From Myxococcota bacterium (GTDB lineage Bacteria; Myxococcota_A; UBA9160; UBA4427): DNA of 64,000 bases. Made by a program: the position numbers and the translations under genes. The notes beneath the pieces are model-generated. The model was given only the letters and a program-made list of their open reading frames with translations, was not told the DNA's origin and did no database searches. The stretch covers positions 4,576,001 to 4,640,000 of the forward strand of contig OZ252299.1 in NCBI GenBank assembly GCA_965250285.1. Direction: 5' to 3'. Below are positions 33,678-51,174 of this stretch, one piece after another (the first letter of the stretch is position 1; the number at the start of each line of letters is the position of its first letter).

Positions 33678-35663
33678 ATGGCGAAGGCGGGCGGCTCCGG
33701 CTCCGACCAGGAAGGCGATGCCCGCGACCACGCGCCGCTCGTGGTCGGCACGGCCGGCCACATCGATCATGGCAAGACGTCGCTGATTCGCGCGCTCACC
33801 GGTCTCGACCTCGACCGCCTGCCCGAAGAGAAGGCGCGCGGCATCACGATCGATCTCGGCTTCGCGCCCCTCGATCTGCCCGGAGGGCGGCGCATCGGCG
33901 TGGTCGACGTGCCGGGGCACGAGGGACTCGTGCGCACCATGGTCTCGGGGGCGACGGGCATCGACGTCGTGCTGCTCGTCGTCGCCGCCGACGAAGGGGT
34001 CATGCCGCAGACGCGCGAGCACCTCGCGATCTGCGACCTGCTCGACCTGCGACACGGGCTGGTCGCGCTGACGCGGAGCGACCTCGTCGACGACGAAACC
34101 TGCGAGCTCGCCGAAGCCGAGATGCAGGATCTGCTCGCCGGGACGACCCTCGAAGCCGCGCCCATCCTCGCCGTCTCGGCCGTGACCGGCGACGGCATCG
34201 AGGCCCTGCGCGAGACCCTCGCCCGGGTCTGTGTCGAAGCGGCGCCCCGCACCCCACGACAAGGCCCTGCCCGACTGAACGTCGACCGCGCATTCACGAT
34301 GCGGGGCTTCGGCTCGGTGGTGACCGGCACGCTGGTCGGTTCGGATCTCACCGTCGGCGACGCGATCGAGCTGCTGCCCGAGGGCCACACCGCGCGCGTG
34401 CGCGGGCTTCAGCGACACGGCGACGCCGTCGATGCGGCCCACCCCGGTGCACGCTGCGCGGTCAATGTGCAGGGCGTCGAGCAAGACGCGCTGTCACGTG
34501 GGCAGGTCGTCGCGAAGCCCGGCACCGTCCCGACGACCGACGTCGCCGACGTCCACCTCCACTGGCTTGCGACCTCGCCCGAAGAAACGGGCGTCGTCGC
34601 CGTCGAGCTGCTCTGCGGCACGAGTGAACGACGCGCCCGCCTGGCGCCGATCGGCCCCGACGCGACGCTGCGGCCGGGCACCACCGGCTTCGCGCGGCTG
34701 CATGTCGACGGCCCGCCGATCGCCGTGTTGCCCGGCGAGCGATTCATCGTGCGCGGCTTCGCGCGACACGACCTGGCGGGCCACACCCTGGGCGGCGGCC
34801 GCTTCCTCGATATCGCCCCCCCGCGCCGCCGTCGCAGCGACCCCGTGCTCACACACGAGCTCGAAGCGCTCGACACCGGCGACGTCACCGAAGCCCTGGC
34901 GGTGCGCGTCGCGCGCGGCGGGCTCACGGGCGTCGACGAAGCAACGCTGCGCCTGCAGATGGGGATCGAGCGCGAGCCCCTGGCCGCGATCGTCCACGAG
35001 CTCGAGGCGAAGGACCGCATCGTGCGCACGGCCTCGTCGCGGCTCGTCCTGGCCGAAGCCATCACGCGACTCGCCGAGCGGCTGATCGAGGCGCTCGCGG
35101 CCTACCACGAGCGCGAGCCGCTGCGCCCGGGCATGTCGACCGCAGCGCTGCGCGCCACCCTCCCCGACAACGTCGCCCGCGATACGGCCGAGCTGACGCT
35201 CTCGCGCCTCGAGGCCGACGGGCGCATCGTCGCCGAAGGAGATCTCGTGCGGCAGCCCGCACATGCGCCAAGGCTCGACGACCGCGCACAGACGCTCGTC
35301 GGCCGCATCGCGAGCGAGAGCAGCGAAGCGGGCCTCGAGCCCCCCAGCCCGCGCGACCACTGCGCAGCACTCGGCATCGAGCTCACCGAGTACCGCGACC
35401 TGGTCGCGTATCTCGAACGCCAGGGCGCACTCGTGCGTGCGCCGGGCGATCTGTGGTTCGACGCCAGCTCCATCGATGCGCTGCGGGCGCGACTCGTCGC
35501 GCATCTCGAGGCCGAAGGCGAGATCGACACCCAGACCTACAAGAACCTGATCGGCACCACGCGCCGCACGGCCATGCCGCTGATGGAGCTCTTCGACGAG
35601 CTTCAGGTCACCCGCAGGCAGGGCGACGTGCGGGTGCTGCGCAGGGGCGCCGCGGGCAAGTAG
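33678..35663 (+). CDS. selB: Selenocysteine-specific translation elongation factor
   Basis: [36 protein letters not shown]-terminal winged-helix domains. Confidence 0.95.
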
Positions 35664-35669
35664 AGCGGT

Positions 35670-37145
35670 TCAACGAACCAGCCCGCTCAAGACGTCGGCC
35701 AGGCCGGGCGCGGGTCGCCAACCCAGATACAGCACGACGGCCGTGCACAGACCGAGCACGATCACCTCGGCTGTCGAGAGGCCGGCCGTCCGGCCCGTCG
35801 GCTTCGGCCGCGCAAACATCGCGATGGGCACGGCGAGCAGATAGCGCCAGCTCACGCCGACGCCGACGAGCGCGACGATCACCGGCCACACCAGGCCTTC
35901 GGCCACCGCGGCCGAGAAGAGGTTGTACATCGCCCAGAACCCGCCCGTCCCCGGCAGCCCGGCGAGCGCGAGCAGAAAGAGCGCGAGCGCCGTGGCCGCC
36001 ACTGGGCGCACGCGCGCGAGCCCGGCGAAGTCGTCGACCGTCTCGACATCGCGACCCCCGTGCGCGAACGAGGCCGTCAGGCCATGGGCGCCGAGCACGA
36101 TGAAGGCGTAGACGAAGACGTAGAAGAGCACGGCCTCGAACGCCTCGGTCGACGAGCAGGCCAGCCCGAGCGCCAGATGTCCCGAGTGCGCGATCCCCGC
36201 GCACGCGAGCATGCGGCGCACCGAACGCGCAACGAGGGCCAGACCGTGCCCGACCACGATGCTCGCGACGGCCAGCACCTGAAAGAGCCCCGTCACCGGA
36301 GCCAGGCCTTCGGGGATCGCCTCATCGAGCAGTCGCAGCAGCACGATCACTGCGGTCGTCGGCATCGCGACCGCGAGATAGCCGGCGGTCACGTTCGGCG
36401 CGCCCTGGAAGACGTCGGAGACCCACTGGTGGAACGGAAAGAGCGCGAGCTTGAAGAGCAGCCCGCAGAGCAGCAGCCCGAGCCCGGCGAGGCCGAGCCA
36501 GTCGCTGCCATCGAGCCCAGCCCAGAGCGCGCCATAGCCAAGCTCGCCGGTCGCCCCGTAGAGCAGCGCCATGCCGAAGAGCATCAGACCGCTCGCGAAG
36601 CCACCGGTGAGGTGCAGCTTCAGACCGGCCTCGAGGCTCTCGGCGCGGCGCACGTCGTACGCGGCGAGCAGCGACAGGCAGATCGACGAGAGTTCGAGAC
36701 CGACGTAGAGAAACGCGAGATGGCCGGCCCCGATCGCGACGAACATGCCCGCAGAGGCGAGGAGGACGAGCGCGTGAAAGGGGCCCTGCTCGAGCCGCGC
36801 GGCCGATAGCATCGTGACCGAGAGCCACAGCGTCGCGAGCGCGGCCGAGGCGAGAATCAACGTACCGACGCTCGTCAGCCGATCGACGAGGAAGAGCCCT
36901 GTACGCACGTCGAAGGCCGGCTCGACCGCGCCGACGAGCGAGCTCCAGGCCGAGAGCATGACCGCGCCGAGGGCGACCGAGCTCGTGAGGGCGAGCAATG
37001 GACCGCGCCGTGAAGGCGCGCCTTCGACGCCGCCGCGTCGCCGCCGGACCGACGCCGCGCCGTCGATCAGCAGCGCGACCAGCGCACCGAGCGTCACGAA
37101 GAGCACGGGCGCAAAGACGTCCCAGCGCGGGATCATGTCGATCAC
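35670..37145 (-). CDS. nuoN: Divergent NuoN-like antiporter-like subunit
   Basis: GLELSS, EAGLK, FKLALFPFHQWVSDVFQGAP, RRMLA...IAH, LAGLPGTGGF. Confidence 0.8.
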   Translation of the reverse strand: MIDMIPRWDVFAPVLFVTLGALVALLIDGAASVRRRRGGVEGAPSRRGPLLALTSSVALGAVMLSAWSSLVGAVEPAFDVRTGLFLVDRLTSVGTLILASAALATLWLSVTMLSAARLEQGPFHALVLLASAGMFVAIGAGHLAFLYVGLELSSICLSLLAAYDVRRAESLEAGLKLHLTGGFASGLMLFGMALLYGATGELGYGALWAGLDGSDWLGLAGLGLLLCGLLFKLALFPFHQWVSDVFQGAPNVTAGYLAVAMPTTAVIVLLRLLDEAIPEGLAPVTGLFQVLAVASIVVGHGLALVARSVRRMLACAGIAHSGHLALGLACSSTEAFEAVLFYVFVYAFIVLGAHGLTASFAHGGRDVETVDDFAGLARVRPVAATALALFLLALAGLPGTGGFWAMYNLFSAAVAEGLVWPVIVALVGVGVSWRYLLAVPIAMFARPKPTGRTAGLSTAEVIVLGLCTAVVLYLGWRPAPGLADVLSGLVR

Positions 37146-37185
37146 GGCCGCAGCGCCTCTGCTCGGTCCGCCTGAAGGGGCACGA

Positions 37186-38820
37186 TCAACGGGCCTCCGG
37201 CCGAACGTCGGCGCTTGCCTGTGCGTCGTCGAACTCGGCAGGGGCGCCGCGCAGCTCCATCACGTGAAGCACCTCGAGCACCGCGGGCTCGACACGTCGG
37301 AGCATCGGGTTCGGCATCACGCCGAGCACCACCAGCGAGACGATCAACGCGAGCACGCCGAATCGCTCGCCCCAACCGAGATCGATCAAGCCGCGGTTCT
37401 CCGGATTCTCGACCGGCCCGAGCGCGACCGCGCGGTAGCCGCGCAGGAGACATGCACCGGTGAGCAGCACCCCGAGTAGCGCGACGAGCGTGAGCACGGG
37501 CGAGACCGCGAACCCGCCTGCCAGCACGAGCAGCTCGCCCACGAAGCCGAGAGTCCCGGGGATCCCCGACATCGCGAAGAGGGCCGTCGCGAGCAGCAGC
37601 GAGAACACCGGCATCGGCTTCGCGAGGCCCCCGTACGCCGCGAGCACGGTCGAGCCTCGCCGCTCGACCAGCAGGTTCACCAGGGTGAGCAGCGCCGCGC
37701 TTGCGAGCGCCACGCTCCAGCCATGCACGAGCGCGCCGACGATGCCGTGCTCGCCGAGCGTGAAGACGCCGAGCGTGACGAGCCCGAGCGACGCGGTGTG
37801 CGCGTAGGCCTGTAGTGTGCGCAGGTCACTCTGCGCGCCGGCGACGAGCGCGCCGTAGGCCAGCCCGACGACCGAGAGCATGCTCACGAAGGGTGCGACG
37901 GCAGCGGCGCCCTCGGGCAGCAGCGGCAGGCCGACTCGTACCACGAGATAGATCCCCACGACCCCCTGCAGCACGTCGAGCAGCACGAGGCCGTCCGGCG
38001 GCGCCTGCGCGGCGGCGCGCGCCGACCACACGTGGAAGGGGAAGGCGCGCAGTCGCATCGCGATCGAAACGAGCAGCGCGACGAAGAGTGTCGACTGCGT
38101 CGCCCAGCCGGGTCCGGTCGTCGGCACGTCGACGTCGAGGAGACCGGGCGCTGCGTAGCCTGCTCCGCTCACGAGATCGAACACCCAGACGTGCAGCTGT
38201 TCATAGCCGAGGCGGTGTACGACGATCAAGACGAAGAGCATGCCCATGCTGCCGAGTGCGGCCGGGATCAACCACGCGTAGGCCGCCGCCACCGGTCGCT
38301 CGCCGCCCCAGCTCACGATCATGAAGCCGATGGGCAGGAGCATCAGCGTCCAGAACAAGTGCATCTGCATCACGTTCATCGAGAGCAGCGCACCCAGCAT
38401 CAGAGACTGCAAAGCGAGCACCCGCGCGACGGCGCCGGCCGTGAAACGCGAGGCATCACCGGGCGTCGACCAGCATGCGGTCGGCACGATGAAGAGCACC
38501 AGCAAAACGGGGAAGAGCGAGAGACCGTCGACCGCGAAGTAGAAATGGAAGCCGTACTGCGGCAGCCACTCCCAACGCTCGACGTGCTGTAGCCCGAGCA
38601 GCTCGGGATCGAAGCCTGACCACAACCCCGCCGCAGCGACCGCGAACTGCAGCGTCGTGAAGCCGATCCCGAAGCGTCGCCACACGCCCACGGGCGCGCG
38701 CTCGACACCGACGGCGCGGGCGACCAGCGCGTTCAGCGCCAGCACGAGCGCGGCCGCAACCAGCGGCGCGAGCACGAGCGCCGTCAGCCATCCGCCGAAC
38801 GTGTCGGCCCCGGCTCCCAT
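37186..38820 (-). CDS. nuoM: Divergent NuoM-like antiporter-like subunit
   Basis: AVDGLS, WGGE, FPFHVW, YGGLAKPMP, GIPGTLGFVGE. Confidence 0.8.
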   Translation of the reverse strand: MGAGADTFGGWLTALVLAPLVAAALVLALNALVARAVGVERAPVGVWRRFGIGFTTLQFAVAAAGLWSGFDPELLGLQHVERWEWLPQYGFHFYFAVDGLSLFPVLLVLFIVPTACWSTPGDASRFTAGAVARVLALQSLMLGALLSMNVMQMHLFWTLMLLPIGFMIVSWGGERPVAAAYAWLIPAALGSMGMLFVLIVVHRLGYEQLHVWVFDLVSGAGYAAPGLLDVDVPTTGPGWATQSTLFVALLVSIAMRLRAFPFHVWSARAAAQAPPDGLVLLDVLQGVVGIYLVVRVGLPLLPEGAAAVAPFVSMLSVVGLAYGALVAGAQSDLRTLQAYAHTASLGLVTLGVFTLGEHGIVGALVHGWSVALASAALLTLVNLLVERRGSTVLAAYGGLAKPMPVFSLLLATALFAMSGIPGTLGFVGELLVLAGGFAVSPVLTLVALLGVLLTGACLLRGYRAVALGPVENPENRGLIDLGWGERFGVLALIVSLVVLGVMPNPMLRRVEPAVLEVLHVMELRGAPAEFDDAQASADVRPEAR

Positions 38821-38821
38821 T

Positions 38822-40864
38822 TCAGAGCACTCCGCCGAGCGTCAGCCCGAGCACCACGAGCACCGCCCCCACCAACATCGATGCGAGCACACCCTGCGCA
38901 TAGCCGGCCTGGCCGTAGCGATCGAAGAGGCCGCCCACCCAGTCGGCCAGCTTCGCAGGGGCCGTCTCGAGCACGAACACGAGCAGGCGCTCTCCGATCG
39001 GCCCCCGCGCGAGCTGCCGCGCCACGGCCGAGCTCGGCACGATCACCAGCCAGCCGAAGACATTGTCGGGATCGAGCGCGTCGACGACGCGGCGCCCCGG
39101 CCCTCGAAACCGGTTGCGCAGATCGAGCACCGGCTCGGCCCGATTGCGAAACAACAGCCGGGCGCCGACCGCGCCGGCGGCCATCGCGAGCACCTGCAGG
39201 CCGATCCACGTCGACTGCCGACCCGGCTCACCGCGCGGCGGATGAACGTCGGGCAGCACGGGCTCGAAGAACACCGACAGACTGTTCATCTGCTCGATCT
39301 CGAGCGCGTCACCGAAGATCTGAGACACGCCGATCACACCGCCGAACGCGCACAGGACGGCGAGCGCGCCGAGGCTCCAGAGCGAGGGCGTGCGCGGCTC
39401 CCAGGCGAGGCGACGTCGCGCGGGGTCAAACGAGCTGCGCACGGGAAACACCAGGTAGTAGAGACGGATCGTCGTCAAGGCCGTGAAGAACACGGTCAGC
39501 AGCACGAGCACGCACAGCGTCAGATGCCCGGGCAGCTCGACCGCGCGGTCGGCGGCGTCGAGCACCTGCTCGATCGAGAAGAACGCGATCGTCGGCGGCA
39601 GCCCCGCCATGGTCAGCGCACCCACGAGCGTGAAGGCCTGGGGCCACACCATCGCGAGGCCCAGCGGCTGCAGCTTCGTGCGATCGTGCTGATGCCCGCG
39701 CGCCTTGCTCGCGGTCGCGATCCCGAGAAACAGAAGCGCCTTGGCACACGCATGCGCCGTGACGTGAAAGAGCGCAACGTCGTAGGCACCGAGCCCGACG
39801 GCGAGCGCCGCGATCGAGAGCTGGCTGCCCGTCGTCCACGTCAGGATCGCGCGGCCGTCGTCTTCGGCGAGCGAGGCGAGCACGAAGAGCAGCGCGCCCG
39901 CGGCCGCCACCCAGCAGAGCGCCGTCTCGAGCAACGGCACCGCCTCGAACAGAAAGCCGACCCGCACGAGCAGCAGAATGCCGGTGCACGGCATCGCGAC
40001 CGCCTGCATGAACGCCGACGCCGGCGAGGGCGCGACCGAGGCGGCGCGTAGACCGAACATGAAGGGCAGCACGAAGAGGCGGGACGCCGCGGCCAGCGCG
40101 AAGAGCAGCCCGGTGTAGACGGCCGGCGCGACTCCCGGTGCCTCCCCCTCGTGGGCAGGCGGCGGGACGGCGAGCAGCGTGTCGCGGGCGGCGCGGAGGC
40201 TCGACCAGGACAGGTCGGCGCCGCCGCCATCGACGAGCTGCCAGAAGACGCTCAGGAGCCCGGCGAGGAAGAGCGCGTCGCCGGTCCGTTGCCGCAGCGA
40301 CACCTTCTGGAGCGCCGCGCGCCGATCGGCTTCGCCGTACCAGAAGCCGACGAGCAGCCGACCGAAGAGGCCGCACGACACCCACGCGGCGAACGCCAGC
40401 ACCATGTCGTCGGCGAGCACGAAGAGCAGGACGGCCGCGAGCAACGCACACGCGTAGGCGCAGAAGCGCTGCAAGCCGCCGTCGTCGTGGTCATCGCGCG
40501 CCATGTGGATGCCCGCGTGGATCTGGATCGCGAGACCGACGTAGCTCGCGACGAGGCAGAGCAGAGCGGCGACCGGGTCGAATCGCAGGACGAACGCGAC
40601 ATCGAGCGCTTCGGCGCCGACGCCGAGCCCGAACCAGCTGCCGACGCGATCGACGATCGGCACCTCGATGCCGCCGCTCACGAGCCGTGCAAAGAAGAGG
40701 GTCGAGAGCAGCGCCGGCACGGCGAAACCCGCGGCCGCGACCCAGGCGATCGTGCGATCGGCGAGCTGACGTCGCAGCACCCCGCTGGCGATGCCAAGGG
40801 CGAGGGCGACGACGAGCGGCGCAGCGGGGATCCACACCAGATCAGCGGGGCCGGTCCAGCTCAT
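38822..40864 (-). CDS. nuoL: Divergent NuoL-like antiporter-like subunit
   Basis: LLVGFWY, RTGD, SQL, FHVTAHACAKALLFL, C-terminal transverse-helix region ending QAGY. Confidence 0.8.
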   Translation of the reverse strand: MSWTGPADLVWIPAAPLVVALALGIASGVLRRQLADRTIAWVAAAGFAVPALLSTLFFARLVSGGIEVPIVDRVGSWFGLGVGAEALDVAFVLRFDPVAALLCLVASYVGLAIQIHAGIHMARDDHDDGGLQRFCAYACALLAAVLLFVLADDMVLAFAAWVSCGLFGRLLVGFWYGEADRRAALQKVSLRQRTGDALFLAGLLSVFWQLVDGGGADLSWSSLRAARDTLLAVPPPAHEGEAPGVAPAVYTGLLFALAAASRLFVLPFMFGLRAASVAPSPASAFMQAVAMPCTGILLLVRVGFLFEAVPLLETALCWVAAAGALLFVLASLAEDDGRAILTWTTGSQLSIAALAVGLGAYDVALFHVTAHACAKALLFLGIATASKARGHQHDRTKLQPLGLAMVWPQAFTLVGALTMAGLPPTIAFFSIEQVLDAADRAVELPGHLTLCVLVLLTVFFTALTTIRLYYLVFPVRSSFDPARRRLAWEPRTPSLWSLGALAVLCAFGGVIGVSQIFGDALEIEQMNSLSVFFEPVLPDVHPPRGEPGRQSTWIGLQVLAMAAGAVGARLLFRNRAEPVLDLRNRFRGPGRRVVDALDPDNVFGWLVIVPSSAVARQLARGPIGERLLVFVLETAPAKLADWVGGLFDRYGQAGYAQGVLASMLVGAVLVVLGLTLGGVL

Positions 40865-41244
40865 CCCGCCTGCTCCTGTGCAGGCGTCGCGCTGCCTTCT
40901 GCGCCCCGCCCGGCGTGACCGAGACGGTTCGCGTCATCGACGTCGGCGCTGCCGCGTCGGCGCACGACGGCCAGCGCGAGTCCCATGCCGACCAGGAGCT
41001 GCACCACGCCGACGACGAGCACGATGAAGGCAAAGGCCTGGCCTTCGAGCGTGGGTGGCGCGCCGGCGCCGAGCGCGCGACCCGCCCACATGCGATTGAA
41101 ACCGACGAACGCGAGTGCGCTCGCGAACGTCACCAGCTGCAGACCGAAGAGCACGACGACGGCGTGACGCCGGCGAATCGATCCGACCAGACCGAGCGCA
41201 AACAGCAGGATCGCGAGACCGAGGACGTGGTCGACACCGACCAT
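40861..41244 (-). CDS. nuoK: Divergent NuoK-like subunit
   Basis: LFALGLVG...RR, GQAFAF, RRRGSADVDD; three TM segments; TGATG overlap with nuoJ. Confidence 0.8.
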   Translation of the reverse strand: MVGVDHVLGLAILLFALGLVGSIRRRHAVVVLFGLQLVTFASALAFVGFNRMWAGRALGAGAPPTLEGQAFAFIVLVVGVVQLLVGMGLALAVVRRRGSADVDDANRLGHAGRGAEGSATPAQEQAG

Positions 41245-41753
41245 CAACGATCTCCCTCGTCGGCCAGCACGCGACTCGCGACGAGACCCACGAGCAGGAT
41301 CAGCGAGAGACCGACGAGCGGCGCCGCAAACTCGCGGTAGAGGGTCTCACCGAGGGCGAACACGCTCCCGAGCCCCGCGTCGACGGGGAGGTCGGGCCGC
41401 GGCGTGCTCTCGAGCGTGAGCAGCACGACGCCGGCGAGCGATGCAGCGGCGATGACGCCGAGGGCATTCAGGACGCGCCGACGCACCGAGCGCGCGGGCA
41501 GGGGCTCACTCTCGAGATCGACGAGCAACACGACGAAGAGCAGACCGACGCCGGCCGCCCCGATCACGAGGAGCAGCTGCGCGACGCCGAGGAAGGGCGC
41601 GGCGAGCAGCGTGAACAGACCCGCCAGCGCCAGCTGACAGAGCACCGCGCCCATGGCCGCCCCCACGGTCGTCCGCGCCGTCAGGATCAAGACGAGCGCG
41701 CCGACCACCGCGACGGCGGCGAGCCCCTGGAAGCCGATCGACGCCGCGCTCAC
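41244..41753 (-). CDS. nuoJ: Divergent NuoJ-like subunit
   Basis: LAAPFLGVAQ...GA...LFVVLL, ALGETLY; five TM segments; GTGA overlap with nuoH. Confidence 0.75.
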   Translation of the reverse strand: MSAASIGFQGLAAVAVVGALVLILTARTTVGAAMGAVLCQLALAGLFTLLAAPFLGVAQLLLVIGAAGVGLLFVVLLVDLESEPLPARSVRRRVLNALGVIAAASLAGVVLLTLESTPRPDLPVDAGLGSVFALGETLYREFAAPLVGLSLILLVGLVASRVLADEGDR

Positions 41754-42715
41754 GAGAGCCCCGGACGCGCGACGAGCCACCAGCCGGTCAGAAAGACGTT
41801 CACGATCGAGAGCGGCACGAAGAGCCGAAAGCAGAGAAAGCTGACCCGCGCTTCGGGCAGCGGCGCCATGCGGCTCCCGACCCACCGGATGAAGCCGAAC
41901 ACGAGCAGCGTCTTGACCAGAAAAGAGGTCGCATGCAGCGCGGCACACAGCAGCGCGCCGACCGTGAGTCCATAGCTCTTCGTCAGCACGGGCTCGAGCG
42001 TCGATTCGGCGAGCCACGGAATCGACCATCCACCGAGACCCAGCGTGACGACGTAGCCGGCGAGCAGAAGCGTGTTCACGAAGTCGGCGACGACGGCGTT
42101 GCCCAGCCGCAGGCCGCTGCCCTCGGCGTGCAGCGAAGTGAGTGACTCGGCGCTCGCCGCTGCGAGGTCGAAGGGCGGCAGGCGCAGCGCACCGAGCCCG
42201 CAGATCAAGACGAGCCCCACCGCCAGCGGGTTCAGCAGCACGCCCCAGAGCGGCAGGCGCACTGTGATGCGACCCGCTTCGGGCCATGCGAAGCCGGCGG
42301 TCGAGACGATCTCGGCGGGCGTGGTCGTCGTGTCTTGTCGGGCGGCGATGTCGACGAGTTCGAGCGAGCCGTACACGAGGGCGAGCGGCAGGGTGGCCAG
42401 CGCGAGGGCCACACCGTACGAGAGCGTCTGCGCACCGGCGCCGAGGCAGGCTCGGCGCGCGGCTTCGTCGCGCACCGACCAGCCCATTGCGGCGAACCCG
42501 AGCGCCGACATACAGACGAGCGCGACGGGCACGAGGATCGACGCGTCGACGTCGGCGACGACGAGCGACACGGGCCGCTCGCCGACCAGATACGACGAAC
42601 CGAACGGGAGCACACCCAGGCTGGCGACGGCGACGACGACCGTCCAGGCCGGACCGAGCCGATCGAGCCAGGGGATCGTGCGTGCCGACGTCGGCTGCGT
42701 CGCATCGGCGCTCAC
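41750..42715 (-). CDS. nuoH: Divergent, N-terminally truncated NuoH-like subunit
   Basis: VLPFG, GWS, AQTLSY, PFDL, LGGW; GAGGGGG RBS before the GTG at 42715. Confidence 0.75.
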   Translation of the reverse strand: MSADATQPTSARTIPWLDRLGPAWTVVVAVASLGVLPFGSSYLVGERPVSLVVADVDASILVPVALVCMSALGFAAMGWSVRDEAARRACLGAGAQTLSYGVALALATLPLALVYGSLELVDIAARQDTTTTPAEIVSTAGFAWPEAGRITVRLPLWGVLLNPLAVGLVLICGLGALRLPPFDLAAASAESLTSLHAEGSGLRLGNAVVADFVNTLLLAGYVVTLGLGGWSIPWLAESTLEPVLTKSYGLTVGALLCAALHATSFLVKTLLVFGFIRWVGSRMAPLPEARVSFLCFRLFVPLSIVNVFLTGWWLVARPGLS

Positions 42716-42758
42716 GCCAACCCCCTCGGAGCGTGCGGTGAACCAACGGCATTCGCGT

Positions 42759-43094
42759 TCATGGGCCGTCGTCCTCGAGGCCACCTCGGGTGATCAGGTG
42801 TGCGAACCCGACGAGCAGCGGGGCCGTGATCAGCGCCGCGACCCCGAGCCCCGCCCGGCCGAGCGTCTCGACCCGCGCAGCCCAGGCCGCCAGCAGCAGA
42901 ACCAGGGCCCCGAAGGCGACGAACAGCGCGGCGTAGACCTGGAAACGCGCGAGCGCGCGCAGCGAGTCGACCGGCGCGTCGGGCGGATCGCGGCGTGGGC
43001 GCCGGGGCGCGACGCGCACGTGAAAGAGCACGAGCAGGCCAGCGATCAGGCCGCCGACGGCGGTCAGCGTGAGCAGCGCCGCGTAGTCGCCCAT
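42759..43094 (-). CDS. nuoA: Divergent NuoA-like subunit
   Basis: Three TM segments, AALF...WA...LG, terminal RGGLE (cf. KGALEW); GGAGG RBS; first gene of the operon. Confidence 0.7.
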   Translation of the reverse strand: MGDYAALLTLTAVGGLIAGLLVLFHVRVAPRRPRRDPPDAPVDSLRALARFQVYAALFVAFGALVLLLAAWAARVETLGRAGLGVAALITAPLLVGFAHLITRGGLEDDGP

Positions 43095-43342
43095 GCGCCT
43101 CCCCGCGCCCGCACGGATCGGTCTGCGCACACGGGTCGGCAGACGCCGAGCGTGGGCAGCGTGCGTGCATTCGGGGGGTTCGAGGGGGGACGACGAGACA
43201 GGCCTCGTCGTCGAAAAACGTAGCCCGGCGAGCCCCGAAGCGTCAACGAGATTGGGCGGCTCCGCGGGCGGGCGGCGTGGCGGACGGGCTCGGTGCGACC
43301 CGTGCACGGTCATTCGAGGCGGGGTGTGGTATCTCGGCGGGG

Positions 43343-44356
43343 ATGAATGTGCCCATCACCGTCCTCGGCTCCGGCAGCTTCGGCACCTGCCTCGCGATCC
43401 TCTGCGCGCGCGAGAACCCGGTTCGATTGTGGTCGCGATCGCAGAAGGTCGTCGACGCGATCAACGAGACGCGTCGCAATCCGCAGTACCTGACTGAATT
43501 CGAGCTGCCCGAGTCGGTCGAGGCCACGGCCGATCTGGCCACGGCGCTCGAGGGCAGTGAGATGATCGTCATCGCCGTGCCGAGTCACGGGTTGCGTGAG
43601 GTGATGGCCAAGGCCGCCCCGTTCATCCCCGACGGCGCGATTCTCGTCTCGACCGTCAAGGGCATCGAGTACGAGACCGGGATGACGATGCATCAGGTGC
43701 TCGAGGACGTGGTGCCCGAGACGCACCATCGCAAGATCGTGGCGCTCTCGGGCCCCTCTTTCGCCCGCGAGATCGCGGAGCACCGCGCCACCGTCGTCAC
43801 CGTCGCCTGCGCCGACGAGGCCTTCGCCATCGCCGTGCAGGAGACGCTCTCCTGCCCCTGGTTTCGCTGTTACTCGAGCACCGACGTGATGGGCGTCGAG
43901 ATCGGCGGCGCCCTCAAGAACGTGATCGCGATCGCCGTGGGCATGAGCGACGGCATGGACGGTTCGCTCAACAGCCGCGCGGCGCTCATGACCCGGGGCC
44001 TGGCCGAGATCGCGCGCCTCGCCGAGCGGCTCGGCGGCGATCCGACGACGCTGCACGGACTCTCGGGCATGGGCGATCTCGTGCTGACGTGCACCGGCGA
44101 CCTCTCGCGCAATCGGCGGGTCGGCCTCGCGCTCGGCCGAGGTCAGCGCCTCGAGGAGATCATTCGCGACCTGGGCGAGGTGGCCGAGGGGGTGCGGACG
44201 ACCCAGGCGGCCTGCCGGCTCGCGGCGCGCGTCGGCGTCGAGCTGCCGATCTGCGAGATGGTGCGGCAGGTGATCGACGGCGAGATCACGCCGACCCGCG
44301 CGGGCACCGAGCTCATGAACCGCCAGCTCGGCAGCGAGCGAGGCGGCGGCCGCTAG
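43343..44356 (+). CDS. gpsA: NAD(P)H-dependent glycerol-3-phosphate dehydrogenase
   Basis: GSGSFG, LSGPSFA, GGALKNVIAI, GMGDLVLTC, SRNRRVG. Confidence 0.96.
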   Translation: MNVPITVLGSGSFGTCLAILCARENPVRLWSRSQKVVDAINETRRNPQYLTEFELPESVEATADLATALEGSEMIVIAVPSHGLREVMAKAAPFIPDGAILVSTVKGIEYETGMTMHQVLEDVVPETHHRKIVALSGPSFAREIAEHRATVVTVACADEAFAIAVQETLSCPWFRCYSSTDVMGVEIGGALKNVIAIAVGMSDGMDGSLNSRAALMTRGLAEIARLAERLGGDPTTLHGLSGMGDLVLTCTGDLSRNRRVGLALGRGQRLEEIIRDLGEVAEGVRTTQAACRLAARVGVELPICEMVRQVIDGEITPTRAGTELMNRQLGSERGGGR

Positions 44357-44470
44357 CGGCGTTCGAAGCGAGACAGCGTGCAGCGCGTCACTTTGCGACC
44401 GTGTTCGCCAATCGAAAACCGAGCCGGAAGCGCTGCCGCAAGTCCCCTCCAACGCTACGGTTTCGCGATC

Positions 44471-46765: not shown

Positions 46766-47689
46766 ATGCTTCGACGTCGCCGCTCATTCGTCCGTTTCGT
46801 GACGCTGCTCTGCGCCGGGCTCACGCTCGCGGTGCTCTTCGGCACCGGCTGCGCGACGCGGCCCCGAGACGACCGCATCATCAACCGCTACGGCCTCAAC
46901 GTCTACCTGCGGAGCGATCGCAAGCTCTTCGGCAAGCCGCTCGATCGTGGCTACGCGCAGCCTTCCGACATCCCGGTCGAGCGGCTGCGCGTGATCCTGG
47001 GCAGCCTCGAGATCGAGCGGCGCGAGCGGGCACGCACGGTGCTCGAGCCGGCAATCCCGGCCGAGATCCTCAACCCGGTCAGCGCGGGCGTCGCCGAGGC
47101 GTTTCGCGAGGCGACCCCGGCCGATCGCATCGTGGTGATGGCCGAGCGCAAGCAGATGCAGAAGAAGATCTTCGATCGCAAGTTTCTCACCACGTTCGTC
47201 ACGTGGATGGAGGGCGACGAGCTGATCGTCCATCTCTCGCGCGCCGACTGGCCGATCGACGAGAAGCGCAAGGGCGAGCTGCCCCGGCCGCACGCGAACA
47301 ATCCCCAGCAGAAGTTCAGGCTCGTGACGAACGAGTTCGTCCACGCGTCGGGCAAGACCGGCGTGGCCATCGACTGGAAGAGCGACGTGTTCGGTAGCTT
47401 TGCGAAGGCGTCCGAGCTGCGCGGCGCACCGGTCTCGGCCGCAGCGTCGGGCGGTGCGGCGGCGAGCGGTGCCGTCGCCGGCGCCGGCGAGAAGACGGTG
47501 CTGATGGAGGCCGAGCCCGAGAAGCCGCCCGCCTCTGCGCCGCTCACCAGCGCGCAGCTCGAGGGGCTCGACGCCGACGACCTGCGTTGGCTGGCCGATC
47601 TCGAAGAGTCGCGCGTCGCCGGTGAGATCACCGAGGAGCAGTATCAGCGCCGCCGCGACGCGATCCTCGAGGCCGCTTCGAGCGACTGA
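46766..47689 (+). CDS. Hypothetical lipoprotein with C-terminal SHOCT-like domain
   Basis: Lipobox GTGC; C-terminal GEITEEQYQRRRDAIL. Confidence 0.75.
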   Translation: MLRRRRSFVRFVTLLCAGLTLAVLFGTGCATRPRDDRIINRYGLNVYLRSDRKLFGKPLDRGYAQPSDIPVERLRVILGSLEIERRERARTVLEPAIPAEILNPVSAGVAEAFREATPADRIVVMAERKQMQKKIFDRKFLTTFVTWMEGDELIVHLSRADWPIDEKRKGELPRPHANNPQQKFRLVTNEFVHASGKTGVAIDWKSDVFGSFAKASELRGAPVSAAASGGAAASGAVAGAGEKTVLMEAEPEKPPASAPLTSAQLEGLDADDLRWLADLEESRVAGEITEEQYQRRRDAILEAASSD

Positions 47690-48087
47690 GGCCGGCGCGA
47701 TTGCGCTCGCACGCGAACCGTTGGGGGCGAGCGGCGTCTCACTGTCGATGTTGCCGGGCGCTTGCCTGTGGCTGAAGCCCCAGAGGGCAGCGGGCTTGGC
47801 CGAGCGCATCGGAACGTCGGATGACGCGCGCGATCTCGATCGGTTCGAATCTCGATCCGACACCCGCATGGCCCCGTGAGTCACCTACCTGAACCCGCAA
47901 AGAAGCCGCCCCTTTCGCCCCGCCATCGGGCATCATCAGCGGCTCCCGTGACGCGCCCGGACCGTGACTCGATCGCGGAACGCCGGACGTGCATCGACCT
48001 GCCGACCCGGCGGGTCCAAGAGATCCGGCGGCCCTGTGCGCTTCGAACGCGCGCACCCGCCCCACCGAGTACGGAGTACCGCCCTGC

Positions 48088-51000
48088 ATGACCGCGTTCC
48101 AGGTCTTCCTTCTCTGTCTGGTCGCTTTCGTTGCTTCGCGATTCGCGCCCGATCCCTGGAAGGGTCGGCTGGTGAATGTCGCGAAGGCAGCGTTCACGAT
48201 CGCGGCCTTCTGGGCGCTGCTCGCCTACGAGCTCACGAACGCACAGGGCGAGAGGCAGACGGTCTGGTCGATGATCGTCGAGATCTACGAGAACATTCAG
48301 CCCGCGACGTTCTGGTTCTGGGTGCTCGTCGCGACCGGCGTGAAGCTCGTCGGCATCCTGTGCTCGATGTATCGCTGGCAGCTCGTGCTGCGCGGCCAGA
48401 ACATCGAGCTCCCGTTCCGCCACATCTTCGGTTCGTTCATGATCGGCCGTGCGCTCGGCACGTTCCTGCCGAGCACGGCCGGCCTCGACGGCTACACCCT
48501 CTACGACGCGGCGCGCTTCACCGGCCGCACCGTGGAGGTCTCGGCCGGCAAGTTCCTCGAGAAGATCTGCGGCTTCACGGGCGTCTTCCTCACGTTCCTC
48601 GTCACGCTGCCCTTCGGCATCGCGATCCTCGGTGACCTCGCCTGGATGGCGTACGTCTCGGCCGTGATCGCCATCGGGATCATCGGCGGCCTGATGATCG
48701 TGCTCTTCTACCCCGGCGCCGTGCAGTGGGTGCTGACGAACGTGCCGATCCCGGCGAAGGCCCGGCTCGAGGGCATCGTCACCCGCATCAGCGAGAGCGC
48801 CGGCGCCTACCGCGACAAGAAGGGCCTCGTCTTGATGATCTTCGCCATGAGCTTCATGGTGCACTTCACGACGGCGGCCATGTACTACTACACGGCGCTC
48901 GCGATCGGCGCCGAGGGCGCGAAGTTCTGGGAGATCACGTTCGGCTCGTCGATCCAGATCTTCGCCACCGTGATCAGCCCCTTCACGATCGCGGGTGAGG
49001 GCATTCGCGAGGCCGCCCAGGCCCTGCTGCTCCAGAACCAGATCGGCGCGGGCGCGGCCGTCATCTCGGCGGCGCTCGGCTTCTGGGCCGCCGAAGCGCC
49101 GACCATGCTCGGCTTCGTCTTCTGGTGGATCCGACCCGACGACTACAAGCCGGAGTATGCGCGGGTGAACGGCGTGCAGGTCGACTGGGACGAGGCGGCC
49201 AAGGCGTCGGTGGCGCTCGACCCTTCGCGCTCGAAGGAGGAGCTCGAGGCCGAGGTCGGCGCCGCGGCGCCGATGAGCGAGCGCTTGCTGCGCAGCGCGA
49301 GCGTCGGCTGCGGCTCGGGCGTGCTCGCGGGCATCGTGATCGGCCTCGCCGAGACGGCGGTGATCGCCCAGGGCGGCTTCGGCGACGACGCCCAGGTGCT
49401 CTGGTACGGACCGATGATGTACGCGGTCTTCCTCGGCGGCCTGGGCACACTCGGAGGTCTCGTGCTCGGCGTGCTGCCGATGGATCGAGACGAGATCCAG
49501 AGCTGGACGCCGACGCTCGGCTTCGCTGCGTGTCTCGTGCCGTTGGGCCTCTTCGTCACGCTCTTCCGGCTGCGGCGCGACGTCTACCTCGAGCAGATGC
49601 CCCCTGCGCCGGTTCTGGTCGGCGTGCTCGCCGGCTTCGCGCTGCTCACGTTCGTGATCCTCTACTTCGGCCAGCGCTTCTTCGGCTCACGCGTTGGCAT
49701 CATCGCGCGTGCGCCGATCGCGATCGGGCTGCTCGTGCTCGTGATGGGCACCGGGCTGGCGCTGGGCATCGGCTACGGGCCCGACCGAACGCCGCCCGCC
49801 GGCAGCATCGCGAGCGGGTTGGGCGATCGACCCAACATCATCTTGATCATGGTCGACACGCTGCGCGCCGACTATCTGCCCTGCTACGGCGACGAGCAGG
49901 TGTCGGCGCCGCACATCTGCAGCCTCGGCGAAGCAGACGGCGGCATCGTGCTCGACGGCTACAGCCACGCCTCGTGGACGAAGCCCGCGACGGCCAGCCT
50001 GCTGAGCTCGCTCGTGCCCACCACCCACAACGCGATGAGCAAGCCCTCGCGGCTCTCGGACGAAGTCGATTTGGTCTCGGAAGTGATGCAGGCGCAGGGC
50101 TATTCGACCGGCGGCATCGTATCGAACATCAACCTCGCCGAGAGCTTCGGTTTCGATCAGGGCTACAACGAGTACCACTATCTCGCTCCCAGCTACCTGC
50201 TCGGGGCGGACGAGTCGTCGTCGAAGCTCATCCTCTATCAGATCTTTCGGAGCGTCTATCTCGGCGTCTTGAAGAAGGGGATCACGTTCGACGGCTTCTA
50301 TCAGGATTCACGTGTCGTCAACGCCGTTGCCTTCGACTGGCTCGACCGATTCAAGGACGACCGGTTCTATCTCTTCCTCCACTACATGGACGTCCACGAC
50401 CCCTACTTCGAGCATCCCTACGATGGCCGTGGCTTCTCGCGCGTATCGAATCCGTGGCCGAGCCCCGAGCAGACCGAGGATCTCAAGCGGCTGTATCGCG
50501 GCGAGCTCGAGTACCTCGACGAGGGGGTGGGCGAGCTGATCGCGCACCTGAAGCAGCTGGGGATCTACGACGACACGATGATCATCCTCACGGCCGATCA
50601 CGGCGAGGAATTCTACGAGCACGATGGCTGGTGGCACGGTCTCACGCTCTTCGAAGAGCAGATCCACGTGCCGCTGCTGATCAAGCCCGCAAGGGGCCAG
50701 ATGACGCCGCCCTACACGCGCATGGCCCGGCACATCGACGTCGTGCCGACGATCATCGACGTGGCCGGCGCGGCGCAGCCCGAGCGCATGCAGGGCGTCT
50801 CGCTCTACGTGAGCGAGGCCGATCGCAGCTCGAAGGATCGTCAGCACTTCGCCGAAGAGGATCACGAGGGCAACGTGCTGTGGAGCCTCACGGACGAGAC
50901 GATGAACAAGGTGATCGTCGTCGAGAACGGCGGTGCTCACCGCGAGCTCCCCGATGCAGCCGTGTATGACCTCGACGACGACCCCGACGAGGCGCGCAAT

Positions 51001-51174
51001 CTCGCCGAAGACGACCCGCTGCGGCTCGACGAACTCAAGAGCTACGGCGATCTGCAGCGCCGCGCCGCCGAAGGGGAGGCGGTCGAGTCGGGCGGCGACG
51101 TCGAGATGACCCTCGACGAGTGCCTGCAGCTCATGAATCTCGGTTACGTCGAAGACTGCGACCATCTGAACTAG
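48088..51174 (+). CDS. Fusion of LPG-synthase-TM (UPF0104 flippase-like) domain, TM linker and sulfatase-superfamily domain
   Basis: N-terminal RWQLVL...FLPST.GLD, SPFTIAGEGIRE; C-terminal PNIILIMVDTLRAD, HYMDVHDPY, TADHGEEF, HVPL. Confidence 0.85.
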   Translation: MTAFQVFLLCLVAFVASRFAPDPWKGRLVNVAKAAFTIAAFWALLAYELTNAQGERQTVWSMIVEIYENIQPATFWFWVLVATGVKLVGILCSMYRWQLVLRGQNIELPFRHIFGSFMIGRALGTFLPSTAGLDGYTLYDAARFTGRTVEVSAGKFLEKICGFTGVFLTFLVTLPFGIAILGDLAWMAYVSAVIAIGIIGGLMIVLFYPGAVQWVLTNVPIPAKARLEGIVTRISESAGAYRDKKGLVLMIFAMSFMVHFTTAAMYYYTALAIGAEGAKFWEITFGSSIQIFATVISPFTIAGEGIREAAQALLLQNQIGAGAAVISAALGFWAAEAPTMLGFVFWWIRPDDYKPEYARVNGVQVDWDEAAKASVALDPSRSKEELEAEVGAAAPMSERLLRSASVGCGSGVLAGIVIGLAETAVIAQGGFGDDAQVLWYGPMMYAVFLGGLGTLGGLVLGVLPMDRDEIQSWTPTLGFAACLVPLGLFVTLFRLRRDVYLEQMPPAPVLVGVLAGFALLTFVILYFGQRFFGSRVGIIARAPIAIGLLVLVMGTGLALGIGYGPDRTPPAGSIASGLGDRPNIILIMVDTLRADYLPCYGDEQVSAPHICSLGEADGGIVLDGYSHASWTKPATASLLSSLVPTTHNAMSKPSRLSDEVDLVSEVMQAQGYSTGGIVSNINLAESFGFDQGYNEYHYLAPSYLLGADESSSKLILYQIFRSVYLGVLKKGITFDGFYQDSRVVNAVAFDWLDRFKDDRFYLFLHYMDVHDPYFEHPYDGRGFSRVSNPWPSPEQTEDLKRLYRGELEYLDEGVGELIAHLKQLGIYDDTMIILTADHGEEFYEHDGWWHGLTLFEEQIHVPLLIKPARGQMTPPYTRMARHIDVVPTIIDVAGAAQPERMQGVSLYVSEADRSSKDRQHFAEEDHEGNVLWSLTDETMNKVIVVENGGAHRELPDAAVYDLDDDPDEARNLAEDDPLRLDELKSYGDLQRRAAEGEAVESGGDVEMTLDECLQLMNLGYVEDCDHLN

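Follow-up and report, generated by a model that had tools for sequence, protein, structure and literature searches.

A putative membrane-arm-only derivative of complex I in a Myxococcota bacterium and its relatives

A Myxococcota bacterium (assembly GCA_965250285.1) carries, within the 64,000-nt stretch of contig OZ252299.1 analysed here (positions 4,576,001 to 4,640,000; hereafter the window, to whose positions coordinates refer), a seven-gene operon, nuoA-H-J-K-L-M-N, that encodes the membrane arm of respiratory complex I. The genes for the remaining subunits, nuoEFG, nuoB and nuoICD, have been cut out at three syntenic sites. Comparison of the sequences with those of relatives suggests that the operon is a real, selected and undescribed derivative of complex I, although its function is unproven. 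Complex I is assumed to stay or go as a whole, with no use for the membrane arm once redox input is missing. In the lineages compared here, the arm appears to have outlasted the enzyme several times, still under selection but without its pumping residues. Genomes and loci are designated by G and L numbers, G000 being the genome under study and the others those of relatives.

A first-pass annotation of this DNA had described seven intact, co-oriented and tightly coupled open reading frames between a convergent selB and a divergent gpsA. This description was accurate: all seven frames are open on the minus strand and encode Nuo homologues, the flanks are as stated, and the junctions read GTGA (H/J), TGATG (J/K), ATGA (K/L) and a single base (L/M). 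The 43 bp given between A and H also agree, provided that nuoH starts at the GTG at 42715, which is preceded by GAGGGGG. Two features had escaped that annotation, namely the loss of most proton-axis charges and the absence of the first transmembrane helix (TM1) from NuoH. The features are as follows.

42759..43094, minus strand: nuoA homologue, 111 aa, PF00507; D79 replaced by G and E81 by L, TM1-2 loop shortened
41750..42715, minus strand: nuoH homologue, 321 aa, PF00146; TM1 and following loop gone, E157, E216 and E218 replaced
41244..41753, minus strand: nuoJ homologue, 169 aa, PF00499; Y59 replaced by V
40861..41244, minus strand: nuoK homologue, 127 aa from ATG, PF00420, NF004320 above cut-off; E36 and E72 both replaced by Q
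38822..40864, minus strand: nuoL homologue, 680 aa, PF00361; E144V, K229R, H254Q, K399I; K342 kept
37186..38820, minus strand: nuoM homologue, 544 aa, TIGR01972 above cut-off; E144T, K234R, H248A, K265V; E407 kept
35670..37145, minus strand: nuoN homologue, 491 aa, PF00361, TIGR01770 below cut-off; K247P, K395M; E133 and K217 kept
43217..43246, minus strand: putative sigma70-like promoter of the operon, with a TTGAC-type -35, an 18-nt spacer and a TAnnnT-type -10; presumed active
33678..35663, plus strand: selB, convergent ancestral flank, outside the system
43346..44356, plus strand: gpsA, divergent ancestral flank, outside the system

The best-matching family of each frame is its own Nuo family, and NCBIfam cut-offs are passed by M and K only. 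A single short-read contig covers positions 34800-44400 with zero differences, the run possibly being this DNA's own source; two more sequencing runs from the same study cover the locus piecewise. No Rfam families or tRNAs were found in the window.

Sole copy and excised modules

The G000 assembly is a single 6.25-Mb contig with a completeness of 95%. It contains four PF00361 matches, namely L, M and N of the operon and a DabB-like gene beside dabA. Neither NuoD (PF00346) nor NuoB (PF01058) has a match in this genome, E. coli queries and family-level profiles for NuoB, C and D find nothing in it, and the NuoI family profile yields weak matches only (E 6e-8 and above), off the syntenic site. 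NuoE, NuoF and NuoG were not found either, the genome's only EF/G-like genes being those of an NAD-linked formate dehydrogenase. The first-pass annotation had favored a duplicated arm, perhaps a decoy or regulator of a real complex I, and had proposed a whole-genome search with hidden Markov models; profile and query searches returned no second canonical nuo set in the G000 genome. The arm is the only copy, a vertically inherited original at the ancestral gpsA/selB locus, which leaves no host complex I for it to mimic or regulate. The broader proposal of a conserved stand-alone membrane arm that fits neither complex I nor the Mrp antiporter has stood up well.

In six intact relatives, this locus holds nuoA-E-F-G-H-J-K-L-M-N, so that the window operon is the ancestral one minus nuoEFG. 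The same block of seven genes had been expected between selB and gpsA in relatives; the locus is indeed shared and arm-only or eroded arms are found there, but the intact relatives carry nuoEFG between A and H. In the same six genomes, nuoB, I, C and D lie at a second locus, usually around a pair of genes for a 2-oxoacid dehydrogenase E2 and LipB. At this second locus in G000, the order is pcs, a 220-base gap, E2 and lipB, and the lipB stop is overlapped by a gene that in relatives comes next after nuoD (19 of 20 loci searched). The E2-lipB pair is kept and the flanking nuoB and nuoI-C-D are removed (L052:9399-12957; G000:C1 about 1169400-1172960). Contigs from two runs bridge both junctions, and nuoICD is also excised in G001, G007, G019, G022 and G138, that is, in all five of the other NuoD-less or import-only genomes examined. 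It is hardly credible, then, that the arm is a duplicate beside a canonical complex I, a misassembly or an ordinary split operon with nuoBCDI elsewhere: the order's ancestral operon really is split and completeness is 95%, not 100%, but no second arm was found, nuoB and nuoI-C-D are excised too, and only nuoBICD on an unassembled replicon would revive these readings.

NqrA, C, D, E and F pass their cut-offs in the genome (in a scan without NqrB), indicating that Na+-NQR is present. Three heme-copper oxidase genes, a cytochrome b adjoining one of them and an NrfD/ActC-like gene (G000:C1 3827034-3832027, 624560, 1478015 and 3506436) would make up a branched aerobic chain fed by Na+-NQR. MrpE (PF01899) is absent from the genome; MrpF and MrpG were not searched for, and the operon has no room for them.

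Proton axis, selection and promoter

We scored 24 positions of the proton axis and E-channel, with E. coli letters and numbering checked in the same comparison. G000 keeps five of the 24, the six intact relatives 23-24, and the other EFG-less or eroded genomes 4-10 where every site is scorable. G000 lacks most of the charged central axis and E-channel of complex I and of 11-subunit enzymes, and its congener G001 is identical to it at 21 of the 24 sites. Among the eroded arms, NuoN K247 survives in 2 of 34; G000 has lost both K247 and K395. In E. coli NuoN, K247A and K395A lose most activity and E133A is like wild type, according to the relevant passages of PMC13073174. With parts of the machinery missing, redox-coupled proton pumping is predicted to be absent.

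Three relatives bear on the order of events. G002 (L072, L158) is headless, keeps 20 of the 24 axis residues and has NuoD H224 replaced by Q; it is a candidate for the earliest stage or for a working 11-subunit enzyme. G011 (L074) still has nuoEFG and keeps 11 of 15 scored residues, its NuoL carrying E144Q, K342M and K399R, which suggests that erosion may begin before gene loss. In G013 (L018:14088-16414), nuoF and nuoG are eroded yet open between A and H (scores 155 and 148 versus about 390 and 190), with no nuoE detectable beside them. These relics within an eroded arm indicate that EFG deletion can follow erosion.

The subunits nevertheless appear to keep their folds. NuoL is full length, including the C-terminal lateral-helix region (profile coverage 0.99). 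In single-chain models, NuoM (predicted confidence score, pLDDT, 89) has a TM-score of 0.87 to Paracoccus NuoM (8qby_M), and the best matches of NuoH (pLDDT 88) are NdhA, ND1 and NuoH at about 0.7, so that both models suggest retention of Nuo folds. By alignment, NuoH lacks TM1 in G000, its congener and G052. What the eroded arms conserve is mostly Gly, Pro, Leu and further positions off the axis, and for all seven subunits identity between eroded lineages is lower than that between eroded and intact ones. Given this fold-type conservation and low eroded-to-eroded identity, there is no sign of a new active site common to these lineages. In relatives that still have relic subunits, NuoB and NuoI keep all Fe-S cysteines, and H224, Y273 and D325 of NuoD are mostly lost. 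In genus g14 (L019, L024, L061, L062, L066-L068), NuoJ is far from canonical and shows, in all seven loci read, a new and nearly invariant motif across the end of TM3 and the next loop, which suggests a lineage-specific constraint.

To measure selection, ratios of nonsynonymous to synonymous substitution rates (dN/dS) were estimated by the Nei-Gojobori method, the high GC content making dS low. Between G000 and G001, dN/dS for H-J-K-L-M-N is 0.243 (bootstrap 0.215-0.273; 2303 codons), compared to 0.230 in four housekeeping genes of the flanks and 0.233 in a pair with intact complex I. Nine within-genus eroded pairs give 0.16-0.42 in eight cases and 0.07 in one with saturated dS. Simulated neutral change over the same distance introduced a mean of 20-63 stops, and each of the 400 runs acquired at least one; with stops absent from the operon and dN/dS at 0.24, a pseudogene cluster was rejected. 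Nuo branches in the genus of G000 are 4.2 times as long as housekeeping branches on the stem and 1.0 times since. Across five eroded groups, the ratio is 3.0-4.3 on stems and 1.0-2.1 within groups; two EFG-bearing pairs give 1.4-2.1 and 0.7-1.5.

A promoter pattern, defined from a two-genome alignment and then searched for upstream of nuoA, was found at 30 of 37 loci, compared to none on the other strand and 0.6 expected from shuffles. A generic, stricter scan did not find the promoter, and its terminators were at chance level. Purifying selection, the kept promoter and the full-length subunits together point to a real, expressed complex, and the arm is likely still transcribed and assembled.

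Several known systems resemble this arm in part. It shares genes, order, locus, promoter motif and folds with the membrane arm of the 14-subunit NDH-1, which in this order of bacteria is split into A-E-F-G-H-J-K-L-M-N and B-I-C-D, but G000 lacks the N and Q modules, 19 of the 24 axis residues and NuoH TM1. The 11-subunit enzymes (cyanobacterial NDH-1, Fpo and headless Nuo, as covered in the pertinent part of PMC3144371) are also without NuoEFG, and G002 resembles that stage; however, they retain NuoB, C, D and I and a charged axis, neither of which G000 has. With the Mrp Na+/H+ antiporter (MrpA-G) the arm shares antiporter-like subunits without a redox module, its NuoN keeping the TM5 Glu and TM7 Lys. 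Unlike Mrp, it has NuoA and NuoH, in a genome without MrpE, and of the Mrp Glu-Lys-Lys-Lys axis half is lost in NuoN and most in M and L; the central and TM12 lysines missing here are kept by relatives' true Mrp subunits. The mammalian proton-pumping (P) module is reported, in the section consulted of bioRxiv 10.1101/2023.05.30.542932, to have activity independent of NADH oxidation. That subassembly has a wild-type charged axis and represents a mutant state, in contrast to the evolved stand-alone operon of G000. DabAB, also present in G000, has a NuoL-like protein outside complex I, but as a single subunit with DabA (PF10070) that is unlinked to the nuo operon; this inorganic carbon transporter pair (L054:4782-9058; G000:C1 about 5070800-5075100) lies ~460 kb away. 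We found no description of an arm-only, charge-stripped complex I in a literature search from which most subscription papers fell outside and supplements were unread. The portions seen of PMC4453560, PMC3144371, PMC4758237 and bioRxiv 10.64898/2026.07.10.737566 hold none, and the supplements of the last could list these genes.

Recurrence among relatives

NuoH is present in 63 of 68 family genomes, with no stops inside the matches. By score, 10 are canonical, G002 is near-canonical, G053 has a second-type copy only and 51 are eroded. The loci of 31 non-canonical family members were read, and NuoJ, missed in seven, was found on re-inspection. Trees and residue tables leave out G046 and G060, in which flanking housekeeping genes are broken too, and L and M of G073, which form one frame of 1354 codons (L068:7428-11489) representing a fusion or an assembly error. 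Three genera (2, 6 and 2 genomes) lack NuoD in every member sampled. Eroded EFG-less arms also occur in two other families, in G035, G123, G138 and G143 and in part in G137 and G139. Mapped on a tree built from housekeeping genes of 28 selected genomes, the arm-only state takes five changes on starred branches, one of the genomes concerned (G143) being only 85% complete; we estimate that the state arose about five times. A single origin of nuoEFG loss within the family was rejected by the approximately unbiased (AU) test (p = 0.018), for a group chosen after the first tree and on a gappy matrix with no mixture model, and one genus changed place between trees. We claim, on this basis, that nuoEFG loss in the family had two or more origins.

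The erosion accompanies Na+-NQR. NqrC is found in 52 of 55 family genomes; of the three exceptions, two are intact and the third, G014, has an additional complete nuo set. Among genomes from outside the family, NuoD is missing or eroded in 9 of the 29 with NqrC and missing in 3 of the 62 without it, kin not being independent and five low-scoring partial NuoD matches being counted as present, uninspected. Two of those three NqrC-negative genomes have an intact A-E-F-G-H operon and probably represent assembly gaps. Since 20 of the 29 NQR-positive genomes keep canonical NuoD, NQR makes erosion possible rather than inevitable.

A second canonical-scoring nuo set is present in G014, G022 (L002, L003), G053, G065, G066 and G073, in B-C-D-E-F order in the two that were read. 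Eroded NuoH persists in 5 of the 6 genomes with a second canonical-scoring NuoH. Mrp is also present in most eroded genomes, although absent from the genus of G000. It follows that neither complex I nor Mrp replaces the arm, and the idea that the arm stands in for Mrp was rejected as a rule. Convergence of NuoK on MrpC through its Glu-to-Gln changes was likewise rejected, as relatives' MrpC has N/G and T at these positions. A switch in ATP synthase ion was not seen, the c-subunit motif being the same in intact and eroded genomes (24 of 25 with a match).

Candidate roles of the arm

Fold-type conservation, the lack of a shared polar site and the failure of complex I or Mrp to displace the arm lead us to prefer, tentatively and at somewhat below even odds, a still-assembled, non-pumping membrane complex with a structural role. 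Na+-NQR would have made NADH oxidation by complex I redundant, after which nuoEFG would have been excised between A and H. A burst of change may then have neutralised the quinone site and the proton wire (Glu to Gln or hydrophobic residues, Lys to Arg or neutral ones). Excision of nuoB and nuoICD would have come next, NuoH losing the helix that docks their products, and finally the arm would have returned to housekeeping-level constraint. The arm could serve as a sealed slab of seven subunits, giving order or stability to the membrane or to other proteins within it. We hold a more general proposition to be somewhat better than an even bet. The arm would have a second, redox-independent function, normally hidden by pumping and uncovered at least five times in Myxococcota-related lineages after the switch to Na+-NQR. 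All soluble subunits would have been deleted, the proton wire disabled and the seven subunits kept under housekeeping-level selection, leaving a natural pseudo-pump complex of ~260 kDa.

Several results weigh against a structural role. The analysis turned up no client of the arm. The whole operon is deleted in G012 and G136, where selB abuts gpsA, and in G033, where serS abuts gpsA; A and H are gone from G137, and G145 yielded no antiporter-like match. Four arm-less relatives keep heme-copper oxidases (4/4), an NrfD/ActC-like gene (4/4) and, in two cases, cytochrome b, so that the arm is not an obligatory scaffold for these; co-loss of any of these with the arm was not seen. Within-genus rates of 1.6-2.1 times housekeeping in other eroded genera indicate looser constraint there, and high GC may account for some of the Lys-to-Arg changes. 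All 34 of 34 eroded arms retain NuoN E133 and have K or R at K217, which would suit a remnant transport site no less than a structural pair.

The invariant NuoN pair, together with K or R at K395 in 32 of 34 arms and E or Q at NuoK position 72 in 28 of 30, lends some weight to the main competing explanation, an uncoupled cation/H+ exchanger or regulated leak. Such an activity, which would probably sit at the NuoN-NuoK-NuoJ junction and balance the Na+ gradient of NQR against the H+ gradient of the oxidases, would suit a genome with NQR and no MrpE. Relevant excerpts of two reports agree with it: the mammalian P module shows Na+/H+ exchange that is higher when the N module is missing (bioRxiv 10.1101/2023.05.30.542932), and pump-impaired NuoL E144Q and K229A still rescue salt-sensitive B. 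subtilis without mrpA (PMC4938563). However, the Glu-Lys-Lys-Lys axis is kept in all five cleanly aligned antiporter-like Mrp subunits of two relatives, and probably in the sixth, but lost in the arm, where replacements differ among lineages and the genus of G000 has lost K395 too. The Mrp Na+ module is absent from complex I, as the part of PMC8165549 on this point has it. G000 encodes other cation/H+ exchangers, namely an NhaA-like gene and four of the CPA family, and most eroded relatives have Mrp as well. We regard this explanation as unlikely, yet the strongest of the rivals.

A slow staged decay, in which the arm has no positive function and selection merely purges misfolded or leaky variants until one deletion removes the operon, seems to us more improbable still. 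Relatives do form a full series: a headless complex (G002), then an eroded arm with remnant nuoFG (G013), one with remnant BICD, the arm alone, the arm minus A and H (G137) and finally no arm at all (G012, G136, G033); lineages diverge independently, and NuoD erosion or loss tracks NQR as described above. A decaying arm, though, is hard to reconcile with a dN/dS that matches housekeeping genes and a pair with intact complex I, or with the near-identity of the scored sites in two congeners. Silencing an operon of no use would take few changes in the promoter, yet the promoter motif is widely kept, and the genome that keeps the arm has cleanly excised seven neighbouring nuo genes. Of the five genomes with complete or near-complete loss, the three besides G012 and G033 are of 2.2-2.4 Mb, a size at which useful genes go too.

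Retention of all seven subunits, NuoH and NuoA included, and of the Fe-S cysteines in relic NuoB and NuoI could instead mean that a redox or signalling partner not yet recognised, for instance the soluble formate dehydrogenase, docks on the arm where NuoBCDI once did. We consider this very unlikely, as the operon includes no candidate partner gene and NuoH TM1 with its loop, the acidic TM5-6 loop residues and the NuoA loop, which we take to form the docking and quinone-entry surface, are lost or most eroded. The general role of that surface is treated in a section of PMC8165549.

Whether structural or not, the arm makes a disputed question, that of what the P module does on its own (for example, Na+/H+ exchange or membrane organisation), testable in simple bacteria. 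The graded relatives amount to natural mutagenesis that sets residues required to pump (NuoN K247, NuoL E144, NuoA D79/E81, all lost) apart from ones with some other use (NuoN E133/K217, kept throughout). Annotation pipelines would count complex I subunits in genomes probably unable to pump with them.

Two neighbouring genes of the window are conserved as well. Positions 47989-51174 encode a 1061-aa protein in which an LPG-synthase-type membrane domain is fused to a sulfatase, conserved near the operon in relatives, and positions 46766-47689 a 307-aa protein with a weak C-terminal SHOCT match, conserved adjoining feoAB or gpsA in relatives.

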